Positions 10,466-32,112 of a stretch of 64,000 nt of DNA are shown here, in pieces (positions within the stretch are counted from its first letter, which is position 1; each line of letters begins with the position of its first letter). The translations under genes and the position numbers were made by a program. The notes beneath the pieces are model-generated. The model saw nothing but the letters and a program-made list of their open reading frames with translations, did not search any database and had not been told where the DNA came from. Origin of the DNA: Escherichia coli. Lineage in GTDB: Bacteria; Pseudomonadota; Gammaproteobacteria; Enterobacterales; Enterobacteriaceae. The DNA lies in the NCBI RefSeq assembly GCF_016903815.1, contig NZ_CP069973.1; one strand, written 5' to 3'.

Positions 10466-11656
10466 TTAATTGCTGTTAACCGAGGTGACCAGATTTGCCA
10501 GGTATTTATCGGTAATACGCTGGCGCAGGGTCAGGTTTTCAAGAGGAGGCACCGGTGTATAGTCGTAGTCGATATACAGTTTTCCGGCCTTGAGGGTTTC
10601 CGCATCGTTGGATTCTTCGCTGAACCAGCAGGTCGCATCCACGATATAGCCGTTTGTTTTCAGCTCACGGAATTTGGCATTGATGCCGTCAACGATGTCG
10701 CGAATCAGCGTTGCGGTGATGGGCTTGTCCACCGCCCACATGTGCGCCTCAGCCATCGTGTCGGCCATCACCTGCGCGGTGCGGGTGTAGTTTTCAAAGA
10801 GGAACAGCGGGTCATCAGAGCAGGTACGGTTACCCCAGAATCGGAAACCGTCGCGGCGAATCAGCGTAGTGACGCCTGACTCGTTAAGCAGGTCAGCATC
10901 GGTGCCGGACTCCTGCAAATCCCAGAATACAGATGCGCTGATGCCGGTAACACCGTTTACCCCGACGTTGGACAGCGTTTTATGCCAGCCCTGCTCCTGG
11001 TCGATTTTAGCGCGCAGACCCAGCGCACGGGCGGTGGCATACGCGGTGGCGGTGGTACTGGTGACCGTATCCCATGCGAGGAAATCCGGCCAGATGACCA
11101 TCAGCTCACGCTGGCTGAAATTCTGGCGGTAGGCTTTCACCTCGGAAATGGTCTTACAGCTCCATGCGCTGATATATCCGAAAGCGCGCAGCTTCTGACA
11201 GACGGATGCCAGTGCAACTGCCACCTCTTTGGTATCCAGTCCCGGCACACCGAGAATACGCGGTTTAACACCGGTTACCGACTCCGCCGCCAGCAGGGCT
11301 TTTAGTCCGGTGTACTGACCGTTTTCGTCGGTGGTGCCGATGATATTGGAAACGGTCTGCGCGAGTTTCGTTTCCTCGTCGTCGCCGGTGCCGTCTTCCA
11401 CACGCACGACTACGGTGACCGGTTTTGACTGGTCAGCGATGGCCTGCAACGACGCCGCCAGCGTGCCTTTTTTACCGGCCTTTGCAATTGCGCTCTGCAC
11501 ATTGGTAATCAGCACCGGTTTATTGAGGGGGAAGATTTCCGCATCCGCATCGCTGGCCGTGCAGACCATGCCGACAATGGCGGTGGATACGGTGGAAATG
11601 ACGCGGGTGCCGTCGTTAATCTCCAGCACCTGCACGCCATGATGATAGTCGCTCAT
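10466..11656 (-). CDS. FI: Contractile tail sheath protein FI
   Basis: 396 aa starting 'MSDYHHGVQVLEINDGTRVISTVSTAIVGMVCTA...', as in P2 gpFI. Confidence 0.94.
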   Translation of the reverse strand: MSDYHHGVQVLEINDGTRVISTVSTAIVGMVCTASDADAEIFPLNKPVLITNVQSAIAKAGKKGTLAASLQAIADQSKPVTVVVRVEDGTGDDEETKLAQTVSNIIGTTDENGQYTGLKALLAAESVTGVKPRILGVPGLDTKEVAVALASVCQKLRAFGYISAWSCKTISEVKAYRQNFSQRELMVIWPDFLAWDTVTSTTATAYATARALGLRAKIDQEQGWHKTLSNVGVNGVTGISASVFWDLQESGTDADLLNESGVTTLIRRDGFRFWGNRTCSDDPLFLFENYTRTAQVMADTMAEAHMWAVDKPITATLIRDIVDGINAKFRELKTNGYIVDATCWFSEESNDAETLKAGKLYIDYDYTPVPPLENLTLRQRITDKYLANLVTSVNSN

Positions 11657-11761
11657 CCGTTTAACTCCGTGGTTAATGGGTGCAACTATTTTCTGTTGGG
11701 CAGTGCATGAGACGCCATTTGACCTGGCTGGTCAGTGGATGAAACAACAGATAAAGAAAAT

Positions 11762-11784
11762 GCGGGCAATTCGCCCGCCTGTCC
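11762..11784 (-). terminator. Intrinsic terminator after the Z/fun-position cargo gene
   Basis: On the minus strand: GCGGGCGAATTGCCCGC hairpin followed by ATTTTCTTT. Confidence 0.55.
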
Positions 11785-11985
11785 TGATTTGCACACACTC
11801 ATTTTCCGACTGACAGTTTACATAGCCCAAAAGTTATCAAATCTGACAGTCTGCTTTGAGCAAGAAGCGGACATTTGCCTGTCAGGGTATATGCCGCTCT
11901 GTGGTTATTATCCAGAATCAATAATTCATCTGAGTTGGATGACATATAAAACATAGTTACTCCATGAATAACCATTAGCAGATTA

Positions 11986-12579
11986 TCAATTATGTAAATC
12001 TTTTGTTTTATGTTCTTTAGCGTATTGTGACAACAAATGGCTATAGCGTTTAAGCAAAATATTAGAAAGATTAAGCTCATTCATGAAGTGTTCTTCTAAT
12101 AAGTAACCATCAATATCAACTTTAATATCATTACCACTTTTCATCTTCTGTAACGTAGATTTCACACGCTCCAGCAGGATGCTTTGCTCATGGTAATAGT
12201 CCATAAGAAGAGTAACATCCTCTTTATCAAGCTTACTTAATTCGCTGAAGTAGGATTTAAACACTTTATCAGTCTGGTTTAATGCAATCTGTAAGCGAGG
12301 CCCCCCTAATGATTTGACATTAATGGCAAAAGGCTCGCCAACAAAATGCTCCGAATTTTCGTCAAAGCCAATATATCTCGTTTTATCAAGAAAAGTGAGA
12401 GCGCGATGGTTATTAGCGATTTCATATGCAAACATTGTTCTGATACTGTCCCTCTCAGCCTCCATGCTTATATCATCACGGTGATTTGTATAAAATATAT
12501 TTCCAACAAAGAGAACCATAGCAAGAATCACTGAACTTGCCTCCCAGTTAATATTTTTAAATCGTCGCTTAGTAAACAT
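11986..12579 (-). CDS. Unknown membrane-anchored protein, cargo at the P2 Z/fun position
   Basis: 197 aa. ATG is preceded by AAGGTG. One N-terminal hydrophobic helix ('SSVILAMVLFVGNIFY'); the rest is soluble and Lys/Glu-rich. AT-rich (22 G+C in 12121-12180). I recognise no family. Confidence 0.7.
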   Translation of the reverse strand: MFTKRRFKNINWEASSVILAMVLFVGNIFYTNHRDDISMEAERDSIRTMFAYEIANNHRALTFLDKTRYIGFDENSEHFVGEPFAINVKSLGGPRLQIALNQTDKVFKSYFSELSKLDKEDVTLLMDYYHEQSILLERVKSTLQKMKSGNDIKVDIDGYLLEEHFMNELNLSNILLKRYSHLLSQYAKEHKTKDLHN

Positions 12580-12800
12580 ACCGCACCTTAATTATCAAAA
12601 ATATTCCTTCAGTGTTATCTGGTTAGCCTAAACCAAGTCATTAAAGTCCGCAGGATATCATATACATAAAATGTATTGATTAGAATTTGCACTAATAAAA
12701 TAATGCTTTACTGAAATCTACTCCAGACATAGAGCGGCCTGTCAGATTAGGCTTTACTCTGTGCCATAGATATGTAATCTCACACCAGAGCTTATACAAC

Positions 12801-13328
12801 TTATTGCGGCATTTCCGGCCATTCAGGATTTACAGGATCCACACGGCTGACCAGAACGCTGTAGCGTTCCCATGACTCCAGTCGTGCACGTTCCTCATCC
12901 GTCGCCATATTCAGCCTGACAGCGCGTTCCAGTGGCTGAATAACGCTTTCCGCTTCGGAAAGTAATGCGGCCTTTTGTGATTCTGCCTGTTGTTGCTGTT
13001 CATCTGCCGTATAAATCCGTTTAACCACAGCACCATCCTTAAACATCCATTTACCTGAGTCGTCAGCACGTCGGTTGGAGGTAATATCAGGAACCTCAAC
13101 AACGCTAAAACCTTCAGGGTTAAGCGTTGAAGCATCTCTGGTGATAGCGACAATAATATTATTTTCATCGTAAACAATCTTTATTGTGTCTGGCTGAAAG
13201 TTCTTCACTTCCTCATACCAGTTTTTTCCATCCTCAGAGTAAAGCCAGATAACTCCGTGTTTCTTTGTTAACTCATACTGTTCCAGTGTTTTAGCGTTAC
13301 CCGCTTTTATGTTCTTTAAGTGCATCAT
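12801..13328 (-). CDS. G: Tail fibre assembly chaperone G
   Basis: 175 aa, immediately downstream of H. P2 gpG-like. Confidence 0.88.
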
Positions 13329-17145: not shown

Positions 17146-17771
17146 AAAGGACTCCCGGTTGTGCCGCCGCTGTCGCCGGGGTGTTTGTGGGTATGCAGTA
17201 CCTTACCGTTTGATGAGAGTTCACCGCCGGTGTGTTCAATGTTGCCGCGCATCGTCCCGCCCTTCTGCACTTCCAGCGTGCCGGTAGTCAGTTTGTTAGT
17301 GCAGACCACTTCTGGTGTGTCCAGGGTGACGCGGGTTGATGCTTTCACCGTGACCACTGGTACCGTGGCAGTAACAGAATCAGAAGCCGTCACGCTGGCC
17401 GTTTTAATTCCGCTTACCGTGAGTGCACTGGTTTCAGGTTCATACTCAATCACCGCCCCGTCAGGGAAACGGATATGCAGGGCATCCGCCGACGCAGACG
17501 GCGCAGGGTTATCGCCGGAATAAATCCCCGGCAGAACGAACGCCGTGTCGAGTTCACCGCCCACGGCCAGAATCAGCACCTGTTCCCCCACGGAAGGTGC
17601 CCACCATGTGCGCGAACGCCCAGCGCGATGGGTCAGCCACTGAAGCCAGTCGGTGCACATGCCGCCAGTCTGCACACGGCAGCGACCGGCATTAAGGTCG
17701 GTTTCGACGATAATGCCAGTGCGAATCATATTGCGTATAAAGCGAAGAATTTCATTGTATTGTGCATTCAT
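17142..17771 (-). CDS. V: Baseplate central spike protein V
   Basis: 209 aa from 'MNAQYNEILRFIRNMIRTGIIVETDLNAGRCRVQTGG...', P2 gpV-like. The track ORF has a 26-codon upstream extension that I reject. Confidence 0.88.
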   Translation of the reverse strand: MNAQYNEILRFIRNMIRTGIIVETDLNAGRCRVQTGGMCTDWLQWLTHRAGRSRTWWAPSVGEQVLILAVGGELDTAFVLPGIYSGDNPAPSASADALHIRFPDGAVIEYEPETSALTVSGIKTASVTASDSVTATVPVVTVKASTRVTLDTPEVVCTNKLTTGTLEVQKGGTMRGNIEHTGGELSSNGKVLHTHKHPGDSGGTTGSPL

Positions 17772-17795
17772 TCGATAATAATGATTCTGTACAAT
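17767..17795 (+). promoter_or_regulatory. Candidate sigma70 promoter for the orf30-position cargo gene
   Basis: TTCATT-N17-TACAAT, about 60 nt upstream of the ATG at 17858. Pattern match only. Confidence 0.3.
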
Positions 17796-17857
17796 CTCGA
17801 AGTAAATCACACCACGATTTCTGGTGCACAGAACAACAAGGGACAACAAAATCCATT

Positions 17858-18931
17858 ATGAGTACTTACTTTTTCTCGTCAGAAACAATGAAAGAATTGT
17901 TCAAAGATTATCTGGTCTTTTTGAACACGCTGACTCCCAGCACAAACTTTGAATCAAACAGAAACAAAATAATTGCTCAAGCAATAAACTTCATTTCCGA
18001 AAACCCTGAAGATTGGGACAAAAAATCCCAGTACAACATTGCTATGATTGGCGACACCTTTAAAAGTTTCTTAAGAGAAAAGGGGGAAGATAACAACAGC
18101 ATCAACCTTATATTCACTTGCTTTTTTAGATTTATCATTGAACCAAGCATTCTCTCTCCGGAAATAGAGTCTCACTTTTCACCACTAAGAACCATCAAGG
18201 ATTTTGCTCTGTATAACTATAATGAATTCGATGAGCGGAGCAGAGCACAGATAGACTTTTCTCTTAGAGAACTGCCATTAGCAATGGTTAAAGAAGTTTT
18301 AAGCTCCAGCAATGTTGACACATATAAAAAATACATTGATAGTTTAAACGAAGGGCGTCAATTTTTCGAAAAGTGCGACTCCTTCTTAAAGGAGCAACAT
18401 GCCAAAATAGAGTCAATTAAAGAGTCATTAAAAGGGTATGAGGTCGCATTTAATTTTGTTGGATTGTTTGATGGCTTTAATTCACTTGGCAAAAAGAAAG
18501 AAAGTGAAATCATGCTATCAAGAATAATTCTTATCATCTTGGCTATAATCATTCCCTCCCCGCTGATATACTATGGAATGCATAAATTACCAACTCTCGA
18601 AACGACAAATGCTGCCACATATTTTATGTCAGCACTACCTTTTGCATCAGTTACATTGATTTTCATGTATTACTTTAGAGTTGTACTGATAAATCATATA
18701 TCGTTACGAACTCAGATTATGCAAATAGAACTCAGAAAGAGCCTTTGTCAGTTCATTCAGAGTTATAGCGACTATTCCTCAGAGATAAGGAAAAACAATC
18801 CGGAAGCGCTTTCAAAATTCGAAGACGTAGTATTTTCAAACATCATGCTATCCGATGATAAGATACCATCTACATTTGATGGCATTGAGCAAATAGCATC
18901 GTTAATCAATTCATTAAAAAATGGAAAGTAA
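17858..18931 (+). CDS. Unknown protein with two C-terminal TM helices, cargo at the P2 orf30 position (antisense to the late operon)
   Basis: 357 aa from ATG 17858 (the track ORF begins at an upstream GTG inside V). Hydrophobic helices 'IMLSRIILIILAIIIPSPLIYYGM' and 'AATYFMSALPFASVTLIFMYYFRVVLI'. AT-rich (20 G+C in 18421-18480). Has its own terminator. Confidence 0.75.
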   Translation: MSTYFFSSETMKELFKDYLVFLNTLTPSTNFESNRNKIIAQAINFISENPEDWDKKSQYNIAMIGDTFKSFLREKGEDNNSINLIFTCFFRFIIEPSILSPEIESHFSPLRTIKDFALYNYNEFDERSRAQIDFSLRELPLAMVKEVLSSSNVDTYKKYIDSLNEGRQFFEKCDSFLKEQHAKIESIKESLKGYEVAFNFVGLFDGFNSLGKKKESEIMLSRIILIILAIIIPSPLIYYGMHKLPTLETTNAATYFMSALPFASVTLIFMYYFRVVLINHISLRTQIMQIELRKSLCQFIQSYSDYSSEIRKNNPEALSKFEDVVFSNIMLSDDKIPSTFDGIEQIASLINSLKNGK

Positions 18932-18936
18932 TGATA

Positions 18937-18965
18937 AAAGGCCAATAACTGGCCTTTTATTTATT
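18937..18965 (+). terminator. Intrinsic terminator of the orf30-position cargo gene
   Basis: AAAAGGCCAATAACTGGCCTTTTATTTATT: GGCC stem, loop, then a T-rich tail. Confidence 0.7.
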
Positions 18966-19033
18966 AACATGAAAATTCAAAATAAATTATGCTAATCAAT
19001 TGATTTCTATCTTATATTCTCAGATGATTAAAT

Positions 19034-28596: not shown

Positions 28597-30021
28597 ATGG
28601 TTTCGTCAAACGTCAAAATAGCAGCATTTCCAGCAAAAAGATTCTTTGTTGAGATGCTCACCCGAGATATTGAGTTGTCTGACTCAATTCTAGATTTACT
28701 AGATAACTGCCTAGATGGTGTATTAAGAAAAAACAATTTCACTCCAGAGCAAACCTTCGGTAAATCAGACGTTTACAAGGGTTACTATGCTCATATTGAA
28801 TTTGATGAGAATAGTTTCAGAATAACTGATAATTGCGGAGGTATTCCAGCAAAACTTGCGGAAAGCTATGCGTTTAGGTTGGGTAGACCTGCAGAACGTG
28901 AGGCGGATGATCTCCCGACAATTGGTGTATATGGTATCGGAATGAAACGAGCGATTTTCAAAATGGGGACATCTGCTCAGATTTTAAGCAAAACTGAAAA
29001 CGAACAATTTTCAGTTACCATTTCTCCTGAATGGATGGCTGATGATGAAAACTGGTCTTTGGAGTTAGAGCGAAATAATGTTGACTTAAACGAAACAGGC
29101 GTCAGCATCCAAATTAACAATTTAAGGAAAGATATTAAAGCATCCCTATCAAAGGATCGTGGCTTTGAAGAAGTTTTGATTAATATCATAGCAAATCATT
29201 ATAGTTTAATCATTAAAAAAGGGTTTGAGGTTAAAGTAAATGGATGTATTGTTAAGCCAAATAGCACCAATTTAATATTTGATGAAGAAGCCATTAAAGG
29301 CAATACCGACGGCATTGCTCCTTATGTATATAAAAATAATTCAAATGGAGTTTCAATTAAAGTTGCAGTTGGATTTTATCGTAACTTGCCTAGTGAGGAA
29401 GAAGAAGAGAATTTATTATCAGGCCGTTCCACAACAGAAAAAGCTGGTTGGACAATTATATGCAATGATCGTGTAGTCCTACATGCGGATAAAACCAAGC
29501 TTACAGGTTGGGGAGAAGCTGGAGTTCCACAATATCATACTCAATTCATCGGAATTTCTGGTGTTGTTATTTTCACATCATCAAATGCTGAATTACTACC
29601 TATCACTACAACTAAACGAGGTGTTGATGGTAACTCTGAGCTATATCTTTCTACTAAAGATTTTATGCGCGAGGGTTTAAAATTCTTCACGGACTTTACC
29701 AACAAATGGAAAAGTAACGCAGAGGAAAGAAAGCAAATTATTAATACTGCATCCAATATGGTTTCAACAACTGAGGTCGACTTTACTAAATCAATTCCTA
29801 GAGAAAACTGGTCGAACGTTCGACGTTCAATAGGAGGAGAAGTTTTCAAACCGAAGCTACCAATGCCTCGGGATTCGGATCCATTACGTCAGATAAAATT
29901 TAGCCGTAGACATAGTGAAATAAAACTGGTGTCAGAGTTTCTCTTTGATGATGCAACTCAACCACCAACAGAGGTTGGTCAATATTGTTTTGATGAATTT
30001 CTAAAAAAGGCTAAACAATGA
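28597..30021 (+). CDS. GHKL-superfamily (MORC/MutL-like, HATPase_c_3-type) ATPase, cargo gene 1
   Basis: 474 aa. ATG is preceded by AAGGA. Bergerat-fold motifs occur in order: N-box 'ILDLLDNCLDG', G1 'RITDNCGGIP', G2 'IGVYGIGMKRAIFKMG'. The C-terminal ~330 aa is unassigned. AT-rich. Confidence 0.8.
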   Translation: MVSSNVKIAAFPAKRFFVEMLTRDIELSDSILDLLDNCLDGVLRKNNFTPEQTFGKSDVYKGYYAHIEFDENSFRITDNCGGIPAKLAESYAFRLGRPAEREADDLPTIGVYGIGMKRAIFKMGTSAQILSKTENEQFSVTISPEWMADDENWSLELERNNVDLNETGVSIQINNLRKDIKASLSKDRGFEEVLINIIANHYSLIIKKGFEVKVNGCIVKPNSTNLIFDEEAIKGNTDGIAPYVYKNNSNGVSIKVAVGFYRNLPSEEEEENLLSGRSTTEKAGWTIICNDRVVLHADKTKLTGWGEAGVPQYHTQFIGISGVVIFTSSNAELLPITTTKRGVDGNSELYLSTKDFMREGLKFFTDFTNKWKSNAEERKQIINTASNMVSTTEVDFTKSIPRENWSNVRRSIGGEVFKPKLPMPRDSDPLRQIKFSRRHSEIKLVSEFLFDDATQPPTEVGQYCFDEFLKKAKQ

Positions 30022-31010
30022 GTACTGGCGGAAGCATCCCATATCATTTGCGGCAAAACAAAGCCATTGAAAGGAATCTATTTATAGAATCCCTAAGAAG
30101 GTTAAACAATTATACAAACATATCCGAATATGTATATATAGGATTCGGGGGGCCTTTCCTCGAAGATTTCAAACAAATTCATAATTTGTTAAAAGTGACT
30201 AAAATGATATCTATCGAAGGAGATAAAAATGTCCATTGCCGACAACAGTTTAACAAACCATTATCTTGCATAAATTTGGGTGATACCCCAGAAATGAGCG
30301 GAGACTTCATCAATCGCTATAACTTTGACGATAAAACGATCATATGGTTAGATTATGCAACGCCTTCAGACTTAAATGCTCAGTTAAATGAAATAGTTAA
30401 TTTGGTTACAAAGCTAAAACCCAAAGACATTTTTAAGATCACTTTAAATGCAAACCCTGAAGCCTTGGGAAAAAACCCGAGCGAACGAGATCCAAGAGCA
30501 TATAGATTTCAAAAGATAAACGATATTTTGACTCAAGATTTTTTACCACCGAATGCAGTAGTCGAAGATGTCGGATTTAAAAAATACCCTATGCTCCTAG
30601 TTAATGCTATGAGACGCGCAATAGGGCATGGATTAAAAGGTCGAAATGACATAAGAATACATCCATTAACTTCTTTCGTTTATAAAGATGGCCAACAGAT
30701 GGTTACTTTAACAGCTATCGTTCTTGAAAACACTGATACAGAAGAAGCTAAATTTATTGATAATTCCAGAATCAAGAATTGGCCATTTTATGATGGGAAG
30801 TGGAGTAATCCTAAAAATATAAACGTCCCTGCTATGTCTTTAAAAGAAAGGATACATATTGAATCTTTATTACCCGAAGCTTCAGTAGAAAACATCCATG
30901 AAACTCTAGGGTTTTACATTGGCTCCACTCCTTCTGGAGCCAACTCCGATCTAAGTAATTTTATCGAATACTACAAGGTCGTTCCATGGTATTCAAAGAT
31001 TCTTTTTTAA
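30018..31010 (+). CDS. Unknown 330-aa partner protein, translationally coupled to the GHKL ATPase, cargo gene 2
   Basis: ATGA start/stop overlap at 30018-30021. Glycine-rich 'VYIGFGGPF', then 'ISIEGD' and 'IIWLDYATP', loosely Rossmann/methyltransferase-fold-like. I see no nuclease motif. Confidence 0.7.
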   Translation: MSTGGSIPYHLRQNKAIERNLFIESLRRLNNYTNISEYVYIGFGGPFLEDFKQIHNLLKVTKMISIEGDKNVHCRQQFNKPLSCINLGDTPEMSGDFINRYNFDDKTIIWLDYATPSDLNAQLNEIVNLVTKLKPKDIFKITLNANPEALGKNPSERDPRAYRFQKINDILTQDFLPPNAVVEDVGFKKYPMLLVNAMRRAIGHGLKGRNDIRIHPLTSFVYKDGQQMVTLTAIVLENTDTEEAKFIDNSRIKNWPFYDGKWSNPKNINVPAMSLKERIHIESLLPEASVENIHETLGFYIGSTPSGANSDLSNFIEYYKVVPWYSKILF

Positions 31011-32112
31011 CTTTTAAACAGTAATCGTATAAAGGTAATAGCATAGCCTCAGCCACAAGCGGACTAACGCTATTACCTATCTGTCTAAAACTGTGCCACT
31101 TTGTAGGATGAAAACGGAACCAATCAGGAAACCCTTGTAACCTAGCTGCTTCACGAGGAGTTATCACCCTAGCTTGAGTAGGGTGAATTGGCCTAACGGC
31201 CTGATAACTCCCCTTGTCACTTCCTGTACCTGCTCTCAAAGTTGGACAAAAACCGTTAGGATTGAGTCGTTGTGATCTCGAAATCTTATCAGTTTCACCG
31301 AATGAAAGTTGTCTATATCTCCTGAGCACTTCCTCCGAATGAGCTGTACCTAAAAAGCCAGATACCAATCCTTTCTTTAAATTTTGAATGGATTCTGCAT
31401 CACCTACACCATTTGGTATATGTCCCCAAAGTCGCTCATAATAGTAACCATCTTTATCCATTTTTACTGAACGCCAGCCTTGCTCCTCTGTCTGCCACTC
31501 TTTTCTTATAGTTCGCGGTAATCCGTAGAGTGCATCTTTGACAAGAGTCTGCTCTATTATATTTTTAGGAAAAAAATCAGATTCTTTTAACTGATTAATA
31601 AAACCTCTTTTAAAACCCATGAAAAATATTCGTGTCCGTGTCGTAGGTGCTCCATAATTTGAAGCATTAACCCTTATTGGATGTAATAAACAATAGCCAT
31701 CTCTAACTAAAGAAAATGCTTCTTCTCTTACTGGATTATATTTCTCACCCATAATTCCTGGAACATTCTCTGCCAAAAAACAAATTGGAGATAACTCACT
31801 TACCAACCTAAAAAAATGAATATACAATTCATTTCTTGTATCATTGGCATTCCTTTTTCCAATGGTGCTAAATCCTTGGCAAGGTGGACCACCAATAACG
31901 CAATCAATGTCCTTTACAGCACATGCAGACAAAATATCTTTTGCTGTAAGCGAGCAGACATCCCGATGCAAATGTGTTGATTTTGGGAAGTTTAACTCAT
32001 GTGAAAAAATAGCATGTTTATCCAGTTCAACAGCTCCAACCAAGTTGAAACCGGCTCGAGTTGCCCCTAAGCTTAAACCGCCAACTCCAGAGAATAAATC
32101 AACTACATTCAT
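30961..32112 (-). CDS. C5 cytosine-specific DNA methyltransferase, cargo gene 3
   Basis: 383 aa from ATG 32112 (the track ORF begins at a TTG two codons upstream). Motifs I 'DLFSGVGGLS', IV 'GGPPCQGFS', VI 'ENVPG', VIII 'TRTRIFF', X 'QIGNSVSP'. A long variable region lies between VIII and IX. Confidence 0.9.
   Translation of the reverse strand: MNVVDLFSGVGGLSLGATRAGFNLVGAVELDKHAIFSHELNFPKSTHLHRDVCSLTAKDILSACAVKDIDCVIGGPPCQGFSTIGKRNANDTRNELYIHFFRLVSELSPICFLAENVPGIMGEKYNPVREEAFSLVRDGYCLLHPIRVNASNYGAPTTRTRIFFMGFKRGFINQLKESDFFPKNIIEQTLVKDALYGLPRTIRKEWQTEEQGWRSVKMDKDGYYYERLWGHIPNGVGDAESIQNLKKGLVSGFLGTAHSEEVLRRYRQLSFGETDKISRSQRLNPNGFCPTLRAGTGSDKGSYQAVRPIHPTQARVITPREAARLQGFPDWFRFHPTKWHSFRQIGNSVSPLVAEAMLLPLYDYCLKVKKESLNTMERPCSIR

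Follow-up and report, generated by a model that had tools for sequence, protein, structure and literature searches.

What does the solitary gene do that a P2-like prophage of Escherichia coli carries between its tail-fibre assembly gene G and its tail sheath gene FI, where phage P2 itself carries fun(Z)? The gene lies at 11986-12579 of a 64,000-nucleotide stretch of contig NZ_CP069973.1 (assembly GCF_016903815.1), here called the window, in a prophage that is P2-like by gene content and annotation and adjoins yegQ/ogrK, and it encodes a 197-residue protein annotated at an identical E. coli locus as RefSeq WP_032142943.1, 'hypothetical protein'. Based on comparisons to P2, to related prophages and to copies of the gene in other elements, combined with profile searches and structure prediction, we propose the following answer. 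The gene represents a new, small, uncharacterised family in an already known hotspot, and the 856-bp cassette that holds it is best explained as a self-contained single-gene accessory module, a moron-type passenger of the P2 hotspot between G and FI. That it serves in defence is plausible: judged from context and published validation rates, some anti-phage or anti-mobile-element role, with all mechanisms summed, appears somewhat probable. More specifically, the protein may reside in the inner membrane and exclude incoming phages by blocking genome entry at the envelope; this reading is offered tentatively and by analogy, and makes the gene a candidate for phage exclusion.

A cassette in place of fun(Z)

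The locus is defined by the following features.

10466-11656, minus strand: tail sheath gene, P2 FI homologue (PF04984, PF17482, PF22671; 5' end with 89% DNA identity to P2)
11872-12727, minus strand: variable cassette (blastn against P2, NC_001895), replacing P2 15347-17432, i.e. fun(Z) and its flanks
11986-12579, minus strand: coding sequence of the 197-residue protein (from the list of open reading frames; ATG start, stop codon included)
12584-12589, minus strand: Shine-Dalgarno sequence AAGGTG, read from the sequence, 4 nt 5' of the ATG
12801-13328, minus strand: tail-fibre assembly gene, P2 G homologue (PF02413, E 5e-37; 91% DNA identity to P2 G)

The open reading frame (ORF), G and FI thus all lie on the minus strand. 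Window DNA in common with P2 comprises 13374-12728 and 11871-11403 (blastn, NC_001895), and the 856 bp in between stand in place of 2,086 bp of P2, an interval that carries fun(Z), a gene for 528 residues that runs against the direction of G and FI. The G+C content is 0.29-0.39 over 11800-12800, as compared to 0.52-0.61 in the tail genes. The original prediction, made from the letters of the window, had described a block of about 1.1 kb (11657-12800) reaching from G to FI; its AT-richness is borne out, down to the 22 G+C in 12121-12180 that a recount returns, but the part that diverges from P2 is only the 856 bp of 11872-12727. Its assignment of the slot to the P2 Z/fun position is confirmed by the P2 annotation and the shared flanks. 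Extra, compositionally deviant DNA between backbone genes, as in the moron definition of Hendrix and Juhala, is hence what the cassette at 11872-12727 consists of.

Sequence comparison indicates that ORF 11986-12579 is a real gene under purifying selection. Relatives down to ~20% identity keep a full-length ORF, several homologous loci have an AAGGA or AAGGAG equivalent of the Shine-Dalgarno sequence, and the ratio of non-synonymous to synonymous substitution rates (dN/dS) among five E. coli alleles is 0.15-0.62, with the amino-acid replacements concentrated in the C-terminal tail at residues 186-191. The single ORF with a strong AAGGTG site that had been called initially is likewise what the ORF list and the sequence give, at 197 residues. 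Some records (phage P2_AC1, locus L024; protein cluster P0002) start 16 codons later, yielding 181 residues from a GTG that lies within the transmembrane (TM) helix described below; the start at 197 residues is supported by conservation of the basic N-terminus, by the INWEA motif and by the AAGGTG site. Inactivated copies are occasionally seen, namely one IS1 insertion and truncations to 99 residues. In other records the protein is labelled 'lysogenic conversion protein', a name that is probably derived from position and not from evidence, since no NCBIfam model matches.

A second gene was considered at ORF 11799-12080 (93 residues; an internal start preceded by GGAG, near 11957) and rejected, as this frame overlaps the main ORF at the latter's 3' end, crosses the junction at 11871 so that half of it is P2 backbone, and has no family match in the Pfam, PADLOC and PHROG scans. 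A search for structured RNA in 11500-12900 gave only a chance-level snoRNA match (E 0.44).

The slot itself has been described as the second defence-enriched hotspot of P2-like phages (PMC9519451; bioRxiv 10.1101/2024.10.15.618418), as the original prediction had stated, and the P4 primase-att and P2 tail-gene intervals are both reported as minor defence hotspots (Moura de Sousa et al., PMC13586616). Comparing the slot across P2-like prophages, as had been suggested, shows that the cargo alternates: a spread sample of E. coli prophages contains six states, comprising the same gene, a Shedu nuclease, DUF5677 with a recombinase fragment, two sets of hypothetical proteins and a tail-fibre invertase. 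The last of these is seen in E. coli O157:H7 FRIK2069 (L021), one of some P2-like prophages whose slot holds a recombinase and inverted copies of tail-fibre and assembly genes, an invertible host-range segment. Accessory cargo and variation in receptor binding therefore occur side by side at the G/FI hotspot, in agreement with the iLund4u preprint, which describes a hotspot combining the two (bioRxiv 10.1101/2024.10.15.618418).

The resident of this slot in P2, Fun(Z) (NP_046777.1), shares with the 197-residue protein the G-FI position, the nature of an AT-rich, non-essential cargo and the same backbone junctions. The two proteins differ in that no sequence similarity is detected (best BLASTP E 3.1 over 19 residues) and in that Fun(Z) is 528 residues long and encoded on the opposite strand, whereas the present gene is co-oriented; compared by annotation only, Fun(Z) has no membrane feature mentioned. 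The P2 annotation states that Fun(Z) blocks growth of T5 and confers sensitivity to fluorodeoxyuridine (FUdR). Because the mechanism of Fun(Z) is unexplained, no mechanistic inference is transferable to the 197-residue protein.

A small family in changing contexts

Sequence searches with the 197-residue protein returned no match in Pfam, NCBIfam, PADLOC and the PDB, where the PADLOC search (PADLOC-DB v2.0.0, including the PD-T4, PD-T7 and PD-Lambda systems) was read to E≤1. A full-length match exists to PHROG 3829, of unknown function (E 6e-137), and the PHROGs scan at E≤1 yields besides phrog_3829 only phrog_25274 (unknown, E 0.033). Taken individually, 36 family members have no Pfam match, and their PADLOC results are scattered single matches at chance level. 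The early description of the gene as unclassified and different from Z/fun thus stands, with BLASTP at E 3.1 and PHROG 3829 as the sole family matched. Homology to a structural or tail accessory protein, which the original prediction had named as a result that would speak against it, was absent: Pfam and PHROGs show none to any virion, tail or assembly protein, BFVD gives none at E≤0.001, and the family also occurs outside phages.

The cassette is present in 202 of 5,426 complete E. coli genomes (3.7%), at 95-100% identity and always on the chromosome; many of the carrier strains are human or animal isolates. Of the 1,689 E. coli genomes that have the FI junction, ~1 in 8 carry the cassette, leaving ~88% without it. 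The gene was further detected in 13 Peduovirus genomes (tblastn against 50,697 phage records), P2 NC_001895 not being among them, and on 30 IMG/VR contigs. By profile search of 1.84 billion cluster representatives the family comprises 28 proteins at E≤0.001, and 38-50 in a 90%-clustered database. All named members belong to the Enterobacterales (Escherichia, Salmonella, Pantoea, Kosakonia, Pluralibacter, Enterobacter, Dickeya, Pectobacterium and Proteus), a spread that is under-sampled, as the genome scan with the narrow alignment returned two species representatives only.

Comparison of 13 contexts outside P2-like prophages, which provides the most telling evidence, reveals that the gene is always solitary and that its neighbours are wholly different from one context to another.

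Pantoea ananatis (L003): directly after the primase of a P4-like satellite
Kosakonia (L010): P4-like satellite, same position relative to the primase
Enterobacter (L004): on an IncFII plasmid, IS91 and VapC being the neighbours
Pantoea (L005): island that also contains Antirestrict and RadC
Pantoea (L011): island that also contains ParB_N and AbiJ_NTD3
Pantoea sp. (L009): AlpA-type islet, ~4 kb from an Rhs/WHH toxin-immunity cluster
Salmonella (L006-L008): end of a lambdoid prophage, beside a C5-methylase and DUF4928 pair
Salmonella (L013): integrative and conjugative element (ICE), variable spot in a type-F-like transfer region
Dickeya (L014): beside SIR2 and DUF87/HerA
Pectobacterium (L015): within an unrelated prophage's tail module, encoded on the other strand than the tail genes
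Proteus mirabilis (L027): beside a putAbiC gene next to ahpCF

Solitary contexts that change in this way are what cargo for defence or conflict would show if it were mobile, and they speak strongly against a structural, tail-accessory or lysis role in P2; a function bound to P2 virion assembly or lysis would not be expected to spread over satellites, plasmid, ICE and islands.

Two of these contexts bring other functions into view. The Salmonella copy on the ICE is a distant homologue that lies inside the type-F-like transfer region, between TraU/DUF1525 and TraC and near TraG_N, and entry-exclusion proteins are small inner-membrane proteins, so the protein might act in DNA-entry or entry exclusion against conjugative transfer and not against phage. 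We consider this very unlikely, since the conjugative context is one of 13, adjoins an IS110 transposase in what appears to be a variable region, and most copies reside in phages and satellites.

The second is the Pantoea sp. islet, whose proximity to the Rhs/WHH cluster would fit a non-phage envelope function, namely orphan immunity to a bacteriocin or effector that acts in the periplasm, or a cargo of lysogenic conversion that serves host fitness or virulence. A membrane anchor followed by a small periplasmic domain is also seen in some immunity proteins, colicin M immunity being of this build, and the many carriers among human and animal isolates point in the same direction, as does the fact that hotspots of mobile elements carry non-defence cargo too (PMC9122126). 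Against these points stand the absence of a toxin gene consistently nearby, with neighbours varying by context, the recurrent association with phage, satellite and defence genes instead of toxin loci, and the lack of similarity of the 36 members to any Pfam immunity family. On balance such a function is unlikely, yet it deserves more weight than a role in conjugative exclusion.

Predicted architecture and proposed point of action

Membrane anchoring, topology and fold are predictions, obtained from hydropathy, charge distribution and structural modelling, and place two elements in the protein.

12487-12540, minus strand: predicted TM helix, residues 14-31 (ASSVILAMVLFVGNIFYT), by hydropathy, preceded by the basic N-terminus MFTKRRFKNINWE
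12035-12486, minus strand: helical soluble domain, residues ~32-182 (AlphaFold2 model)

Hydropathy analysis identifies a single segment at residues 14-32 (Kyte-Doolittle 19-residue mean 1.54, next best 0.38), and the remaining 165 residues contain 22 K+R, 27 D+E and no cysteine, in agreement with the initial view of one N-terminal hydrophobic helix and a charged soluble domain. The arrangement is constant in the family, whose members are 165-218 residues long and combine a short K/R-rich N-terminus, one hydrophobic helix and a helical remainder. The N-terminal flank of the helix has a net positive charge and the C-terminal flank is neutral to negative, the charge difference (C minus N) being negative in 33 of 36 members and positive in none; therefore, an orientation with the N-terminus in the cytoplasm and the C-terminus in the periplasm is predicted. 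Three distant members terminate in a CxxxxC pair, which fits an oxidising compartment and hence a periplasmic domain. Inner-membrane localisation is accordingly predicted by the hydrophobic segment, the charge rule and the modelled helix.

AlphaFold2 was run with two alignments.

Alignment A1, close homologues: 23 sequences, predicted local distance difference test (pLDDT) 61, predicted template modelling score (pTM) 0.54
Alignment A3, with distant relatives: 36 sequences, pLDDT 83, pTM 0.72

In the A3 model, the TM helix extends to residue 66 and is followed by a conserved loop (67-91, GEPFAINxKSLGG), after which helices 92-100, 105-116, 119-148 and 151-178 complete an up-down four-helix bundle. 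The profile and structure searches originally advised lead to no known family, only to PHROG 3829 and generic bundles: with both models, the fold searches return generic helical bundles and no specific structural relative, and BFVD gives nothing at E≤0.001, its best matches including a protein of the Haemophilus phage HP1 int-C1 region (E 0.16). The likeness to the periplasmic four-helix domains of chemoreceptors (Tar, PcaY, PilJ) is equally generic; in contrast to these, the 197-residue protein has no second TM helix or signalling domain, and none of the 36 members has a 4HB_MCP Pfam match. Conservation is highest in the TM segment (mean column entropy 1.65, as compared to 1.9-2.4 elsewhere), which argues for a specific intramembrane interaction rather than a passive anchor, and the best conserved positions are W12, S16, V17, R47, A51, E53, I54, N57, L117, Y129 and F165.

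Among the readings considered, the following mechanism of envelope-level exclusion is the best supported, although tentative. In the lysogen, the product would be a bitopic inner-membrane protein with a short basic N-terminus in the cytoplasm, one TM helix and a C-terminal four-helix bundle of ~165 residues facing the periplasm. The conserved face of the TM and juxtamembrane region (W12, S16, V17, R47, A51, E53, I54, N57) may serve as an interaction surface, through which the protein would interfere with the machinery that moves phage DNA across the periplasm and the inner membrane. The target could be either the tape-measure or ejection proteins of the phage or a host inner-membrane protein which those use. 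Action at entry is favoured because a domain facing the periplasm, as predicted, would be out of reach of cytoplasmic phage components. We infer anti-phage activity, as well as action at the DNA-entry step, and the gene is presumably expressed in lysogens.

Support for this exclusion mechanism comes from the position in the fun(Z) slot, which is defence-enriched and includes a Shedu nuclease among the sampled cargos, from the repeated occurrence in accessory and defence-associated contexts that are all single-gene, and from purifying selection together with a 3.7% prevalence in complete E. coli genomes. It may work like known exclusion proteins, by analogy to HK97 gp15 or P22 SieA, while being unrelated to either. 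HK97 gp15 is an inner-membrane, moron-encoded superinfection-exclusion protein that blocks DNA entry, and its gene is likewise small, lies inside the tail cluster of a temperate coliphage and precedes a terminator; it differs in its 62 residues, which leave no room for a four-helix-bundle domain, in the type of phage and in the absence of a common PHROG. P22 SieA is a single inner-membrane prophage protein, sufficient alone, that blocks DNA injection via the ejection proteins (PMC10883804), a mechanism identical to that proposed here; there is no detectable sequence relation, and SieA is confined to P22-like phages, whereas the present family inhabits several element types. SNIPE (PD-T4-3-like, DUF4041) is a membrane-anchored single-gene defence that acts at the injection site and associates with tape-measure proteins (PMC13190303), but SNIPE has a nuclease domain and is a cytoplasmic effector, while the 197-residue protein is without a catalytic domain, is predicted to be periplasmic and has no PADLOC match. 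By function, the protein would belong with the superinfection-exclusion proteins that act at DNA entry, a class to which T4 Imm also belongs; among the annotated exclusion families of PHROGs, no sequence relation is seen at E≤1.

The same architecture could alternatively be that of an abortive-infection membrane effector, which would oligomerise via the TM helix and, once infection is sensed, permeabilise or depolarise the inner membrane, killing the cell before phage release. The strong conservation of the helix, with the small or polar residues S15, S16, G26 and N27 typical of helix-helix packing, is consistent with such an effector, and putAbiC, SIR2-HerA and AbiJ-domain genes are among the neighbours. 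Conversely, there is one moderately hydrophobic helix and no second membrane segment, neither a sensor domain nor a partner gene was seen in the 13 contexts outside P2-like prophages, most of the protein is predicted to lie in the periplasm and so beyond the reach of infection cues in the cytoplasm, and a match to Csx28 is absent among the 60 matches listed for the better model. Taken together, these observations make an abortive mechanism quite unlikely.

How much weight the exclusion proposal can bear depends also on published rates of validation. Six of eight randomly chosen loci of unknown function from the P4 hotspot conferred phage resistance (PMC13586616), and three of eight P2 hotspot loci were validated (PMC9122126). 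Several points weigh on the other side. Cargo is not always defensive, as the other P2 hotspot also holds cytolethal distending toxin and partition systems (PMC9122126). PADLOC, PHROG and fold searches reveal no sequence or structural relation to known exclusion or defence proteins, a generic four-helix bundle conveys little functional information, a full-text literature search for WP_032142943 found no papers, and the accession is absent from the DefensePredictor supplements. The predicted topology follows from a rule of thumb, and the hydrophobic segment is only moderate at 1.54. Finally, promoter-like sites in the window and in the Pantoea copy are not above shuffled expectation, and in P2-like prophages the gene could be mainly a late gene.

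Transcription, boundary repeats and neighbouring cargo

Candidate signals for transcription flank the gene on both sides.

12591-12618, minus strand: sigma-70-like promoter candidate (ATAACA, 16 nt, GATAAT), weak, 9 of 12 positions in the consensus scan
11752-11778, minus strand: intrinsic-terminator-like hairpin GCGGGCGAATTGCCCGC with U-tract, just upstream of the FI late promoter region

The promoter candidate is located in a 221-nt AT-rich leader. In the same leader, at 12656-12670 on the minus strand, a perfect palindrome ATACAT-TTT-ATGTAT adjoins a TATGAT hexamer. The palindrome is partly kept in the Pantoea copy (ATATAT-TTT-ACATAT) and might serve as an operator or belong to the true promoter. 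The hairpin at 11778-11762 has a 7-bp stem with six G-C pairs, is followed by AUUUUCUUUAU, and folds with a free energy of -14.7 kcal/mol (z -2.84 compared to shuffles). A hairpin terminator at 11762-11784, ahead of FI, had been part of the original prediction: the hairpin is there, but it belongs to backbone shared with P2 and is not a terminator of the cassette's own. Of the promoter and terminator that a moron is supposed to bring along, the cassette accordingly offers the 9/12 candidate site, the sole hairpin downstream being shared backbone.

Autonomy of transcription is suggested indirectly by the solitary copies on the plasmid, the ICE and the islands and by the copy on the opposite strand, as solitary copies outside phages imply a promoter of their own. 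In addition, ~70 nt upstream (12620-12687) are homologous to the DNA upstream of the Pantoea island copy, and ~140 nt of non-coding DNA downstream are shared with the Pantoea island copy and the Enterobacter plasmid; flanking non-coding DNA thus moves with the gene, which suggests that its signals move too.

Late read-through is nevertheless plausible in the prophage, in view of the co-orientation with the late V-G operon and the terminator scan, which found no terminator-like site between G and the ORF. From this arrangement, in which the first hairpin is located downstream of the gene, a late accessory of the lytic cycle may be derived, expressed by V-G read-through as an antiholin-like factor in lysis timing or superinfection sensing, or as a factor against adsorption to debris. 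The signal-anchor followed by a periplasmic domain resembles the architecture of the T4 antiholin RI. A late lytic role is nonetheless highly improbable: the gene is dispensable, given the ~88% of E. coli genomes with the FI junction that have no cassette; the family occurs on plasmid, ICE, P4-like satellites and islets without phage lysis or tail genes; and the Pectobacterium prophage copy runs opposite in strand to the tail genes.

Repeats bracket the slot and were compared over seven loci.

12728-12748: boundary element on the G side (late-gene orientation AATCTGACAGGCCGCTCTATG), an inverted-repeat arm of ~19-21 nt
11840-11860: boundary element on the FI side (AATCTGACAGTCTGCTTTGAG on the plus strand), the other inverted-repeat arm, also in P2
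11877-11885 and 12737-12745: 9-bp exact direct repeat GCCTGTCAG at the cassette ends, spacing 860

The left arm, which in late-gene orientation reads AATCTGACAG(T/G)C(T/C)GCTCTG, lies 56 nt (44 nt in L020) past the G stop, and its reverse complement is found ~194 nt ahead of the FI start. It is present in five other prophages (L016-L020), four of which carry different cargo, and is degenerate in P2 (L002); the right arm is shared by P2 and three of these five. Six prophages with five different cargos carry the CTGACAG-containing inverted repeat at the G/FI slot. In the window as a whole, 20 copies of the heptamer CTGACAG are counted, as compared to 4.9 expected. Homology of the cassette to the Pantoea island and Enterobacter plasmid copies stops at GCCTGTCAG. 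The boundary repeats could be a preferred recombination joint for cargo exchange, or merely conserved flank; in the former case, they could help to explain cargo exchange at the P2 tail hotspot.

A bolder form of the exclusion proposal combines these repeats with the predicted protein. Here, the family would constitute a new stand-alone class of inner-membrane exclusion proteins, facing the periplasm, that blocks genome entry of unrelated phages, and possibly of other incoming DNA, via the TM/juxtamembrane surface, and recombination at the CTGACAG inverted repeat would shuffle the cassette among P2-like phages, P4-like satellites, plasmids, ICEs and defence islets. We regard this combined scenario as speculative and rather improbable; if true, the repeat would be the physical basis of the rapid cargo swapping described for these elements.

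The prophage carries further cargo at two other sites. In the slot between the baseplate gene V and the virion morphogenesis gene S (P2 orf30 position, window 17736-19028), an AT-rich cargo ORF at 17762-18931 on the plus strand, opposite in orientation, encodes up to 389 residues. Its product has two hydrophobic stretches around residues 270-325, and Pfam and PADLOC return no match for it. The prophage of E. coli 7/2, otherwise 99% identical, has a different hypothetical gene of 261 residues there, and the V-S slot is thus a third swapping site in the same prophage. The old/tin hotspot (window ~28600-32100, by homology to L012 36629-40144) lies between the portal and replication genes and, by the 7/2 annotation, contains genes for an ATP-binding protein, for an O-methyltransferase and for a DNA cytosine methyltransferase. 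As the adjacent replication endonuclease gene of 7/2 is annotated as a truncated pseudogene, the prophage may be defective.

Since the cargo of these hotspots is for the greater part uncharacterised, a gene of this kind will not surprise the specialist, and should no phage phenotype be associated with it, it would be one more uncharacterised prophage cargo gene. Being small and solitary, with sharply conserved R47, E53, N57 and S16, it is easy to test. If the gene does exclude phages, it would add a family to the short list of single-gene blocks of genome entry at the envelope level, which are mechanistically far less explored than cytoplasmic systems targeting nucleic acids. With the cassette present in ~1/27 of complete E. 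coli genomes, many of them clinical or animal, such an exclusion function could affect the host range of therapeutic phages.

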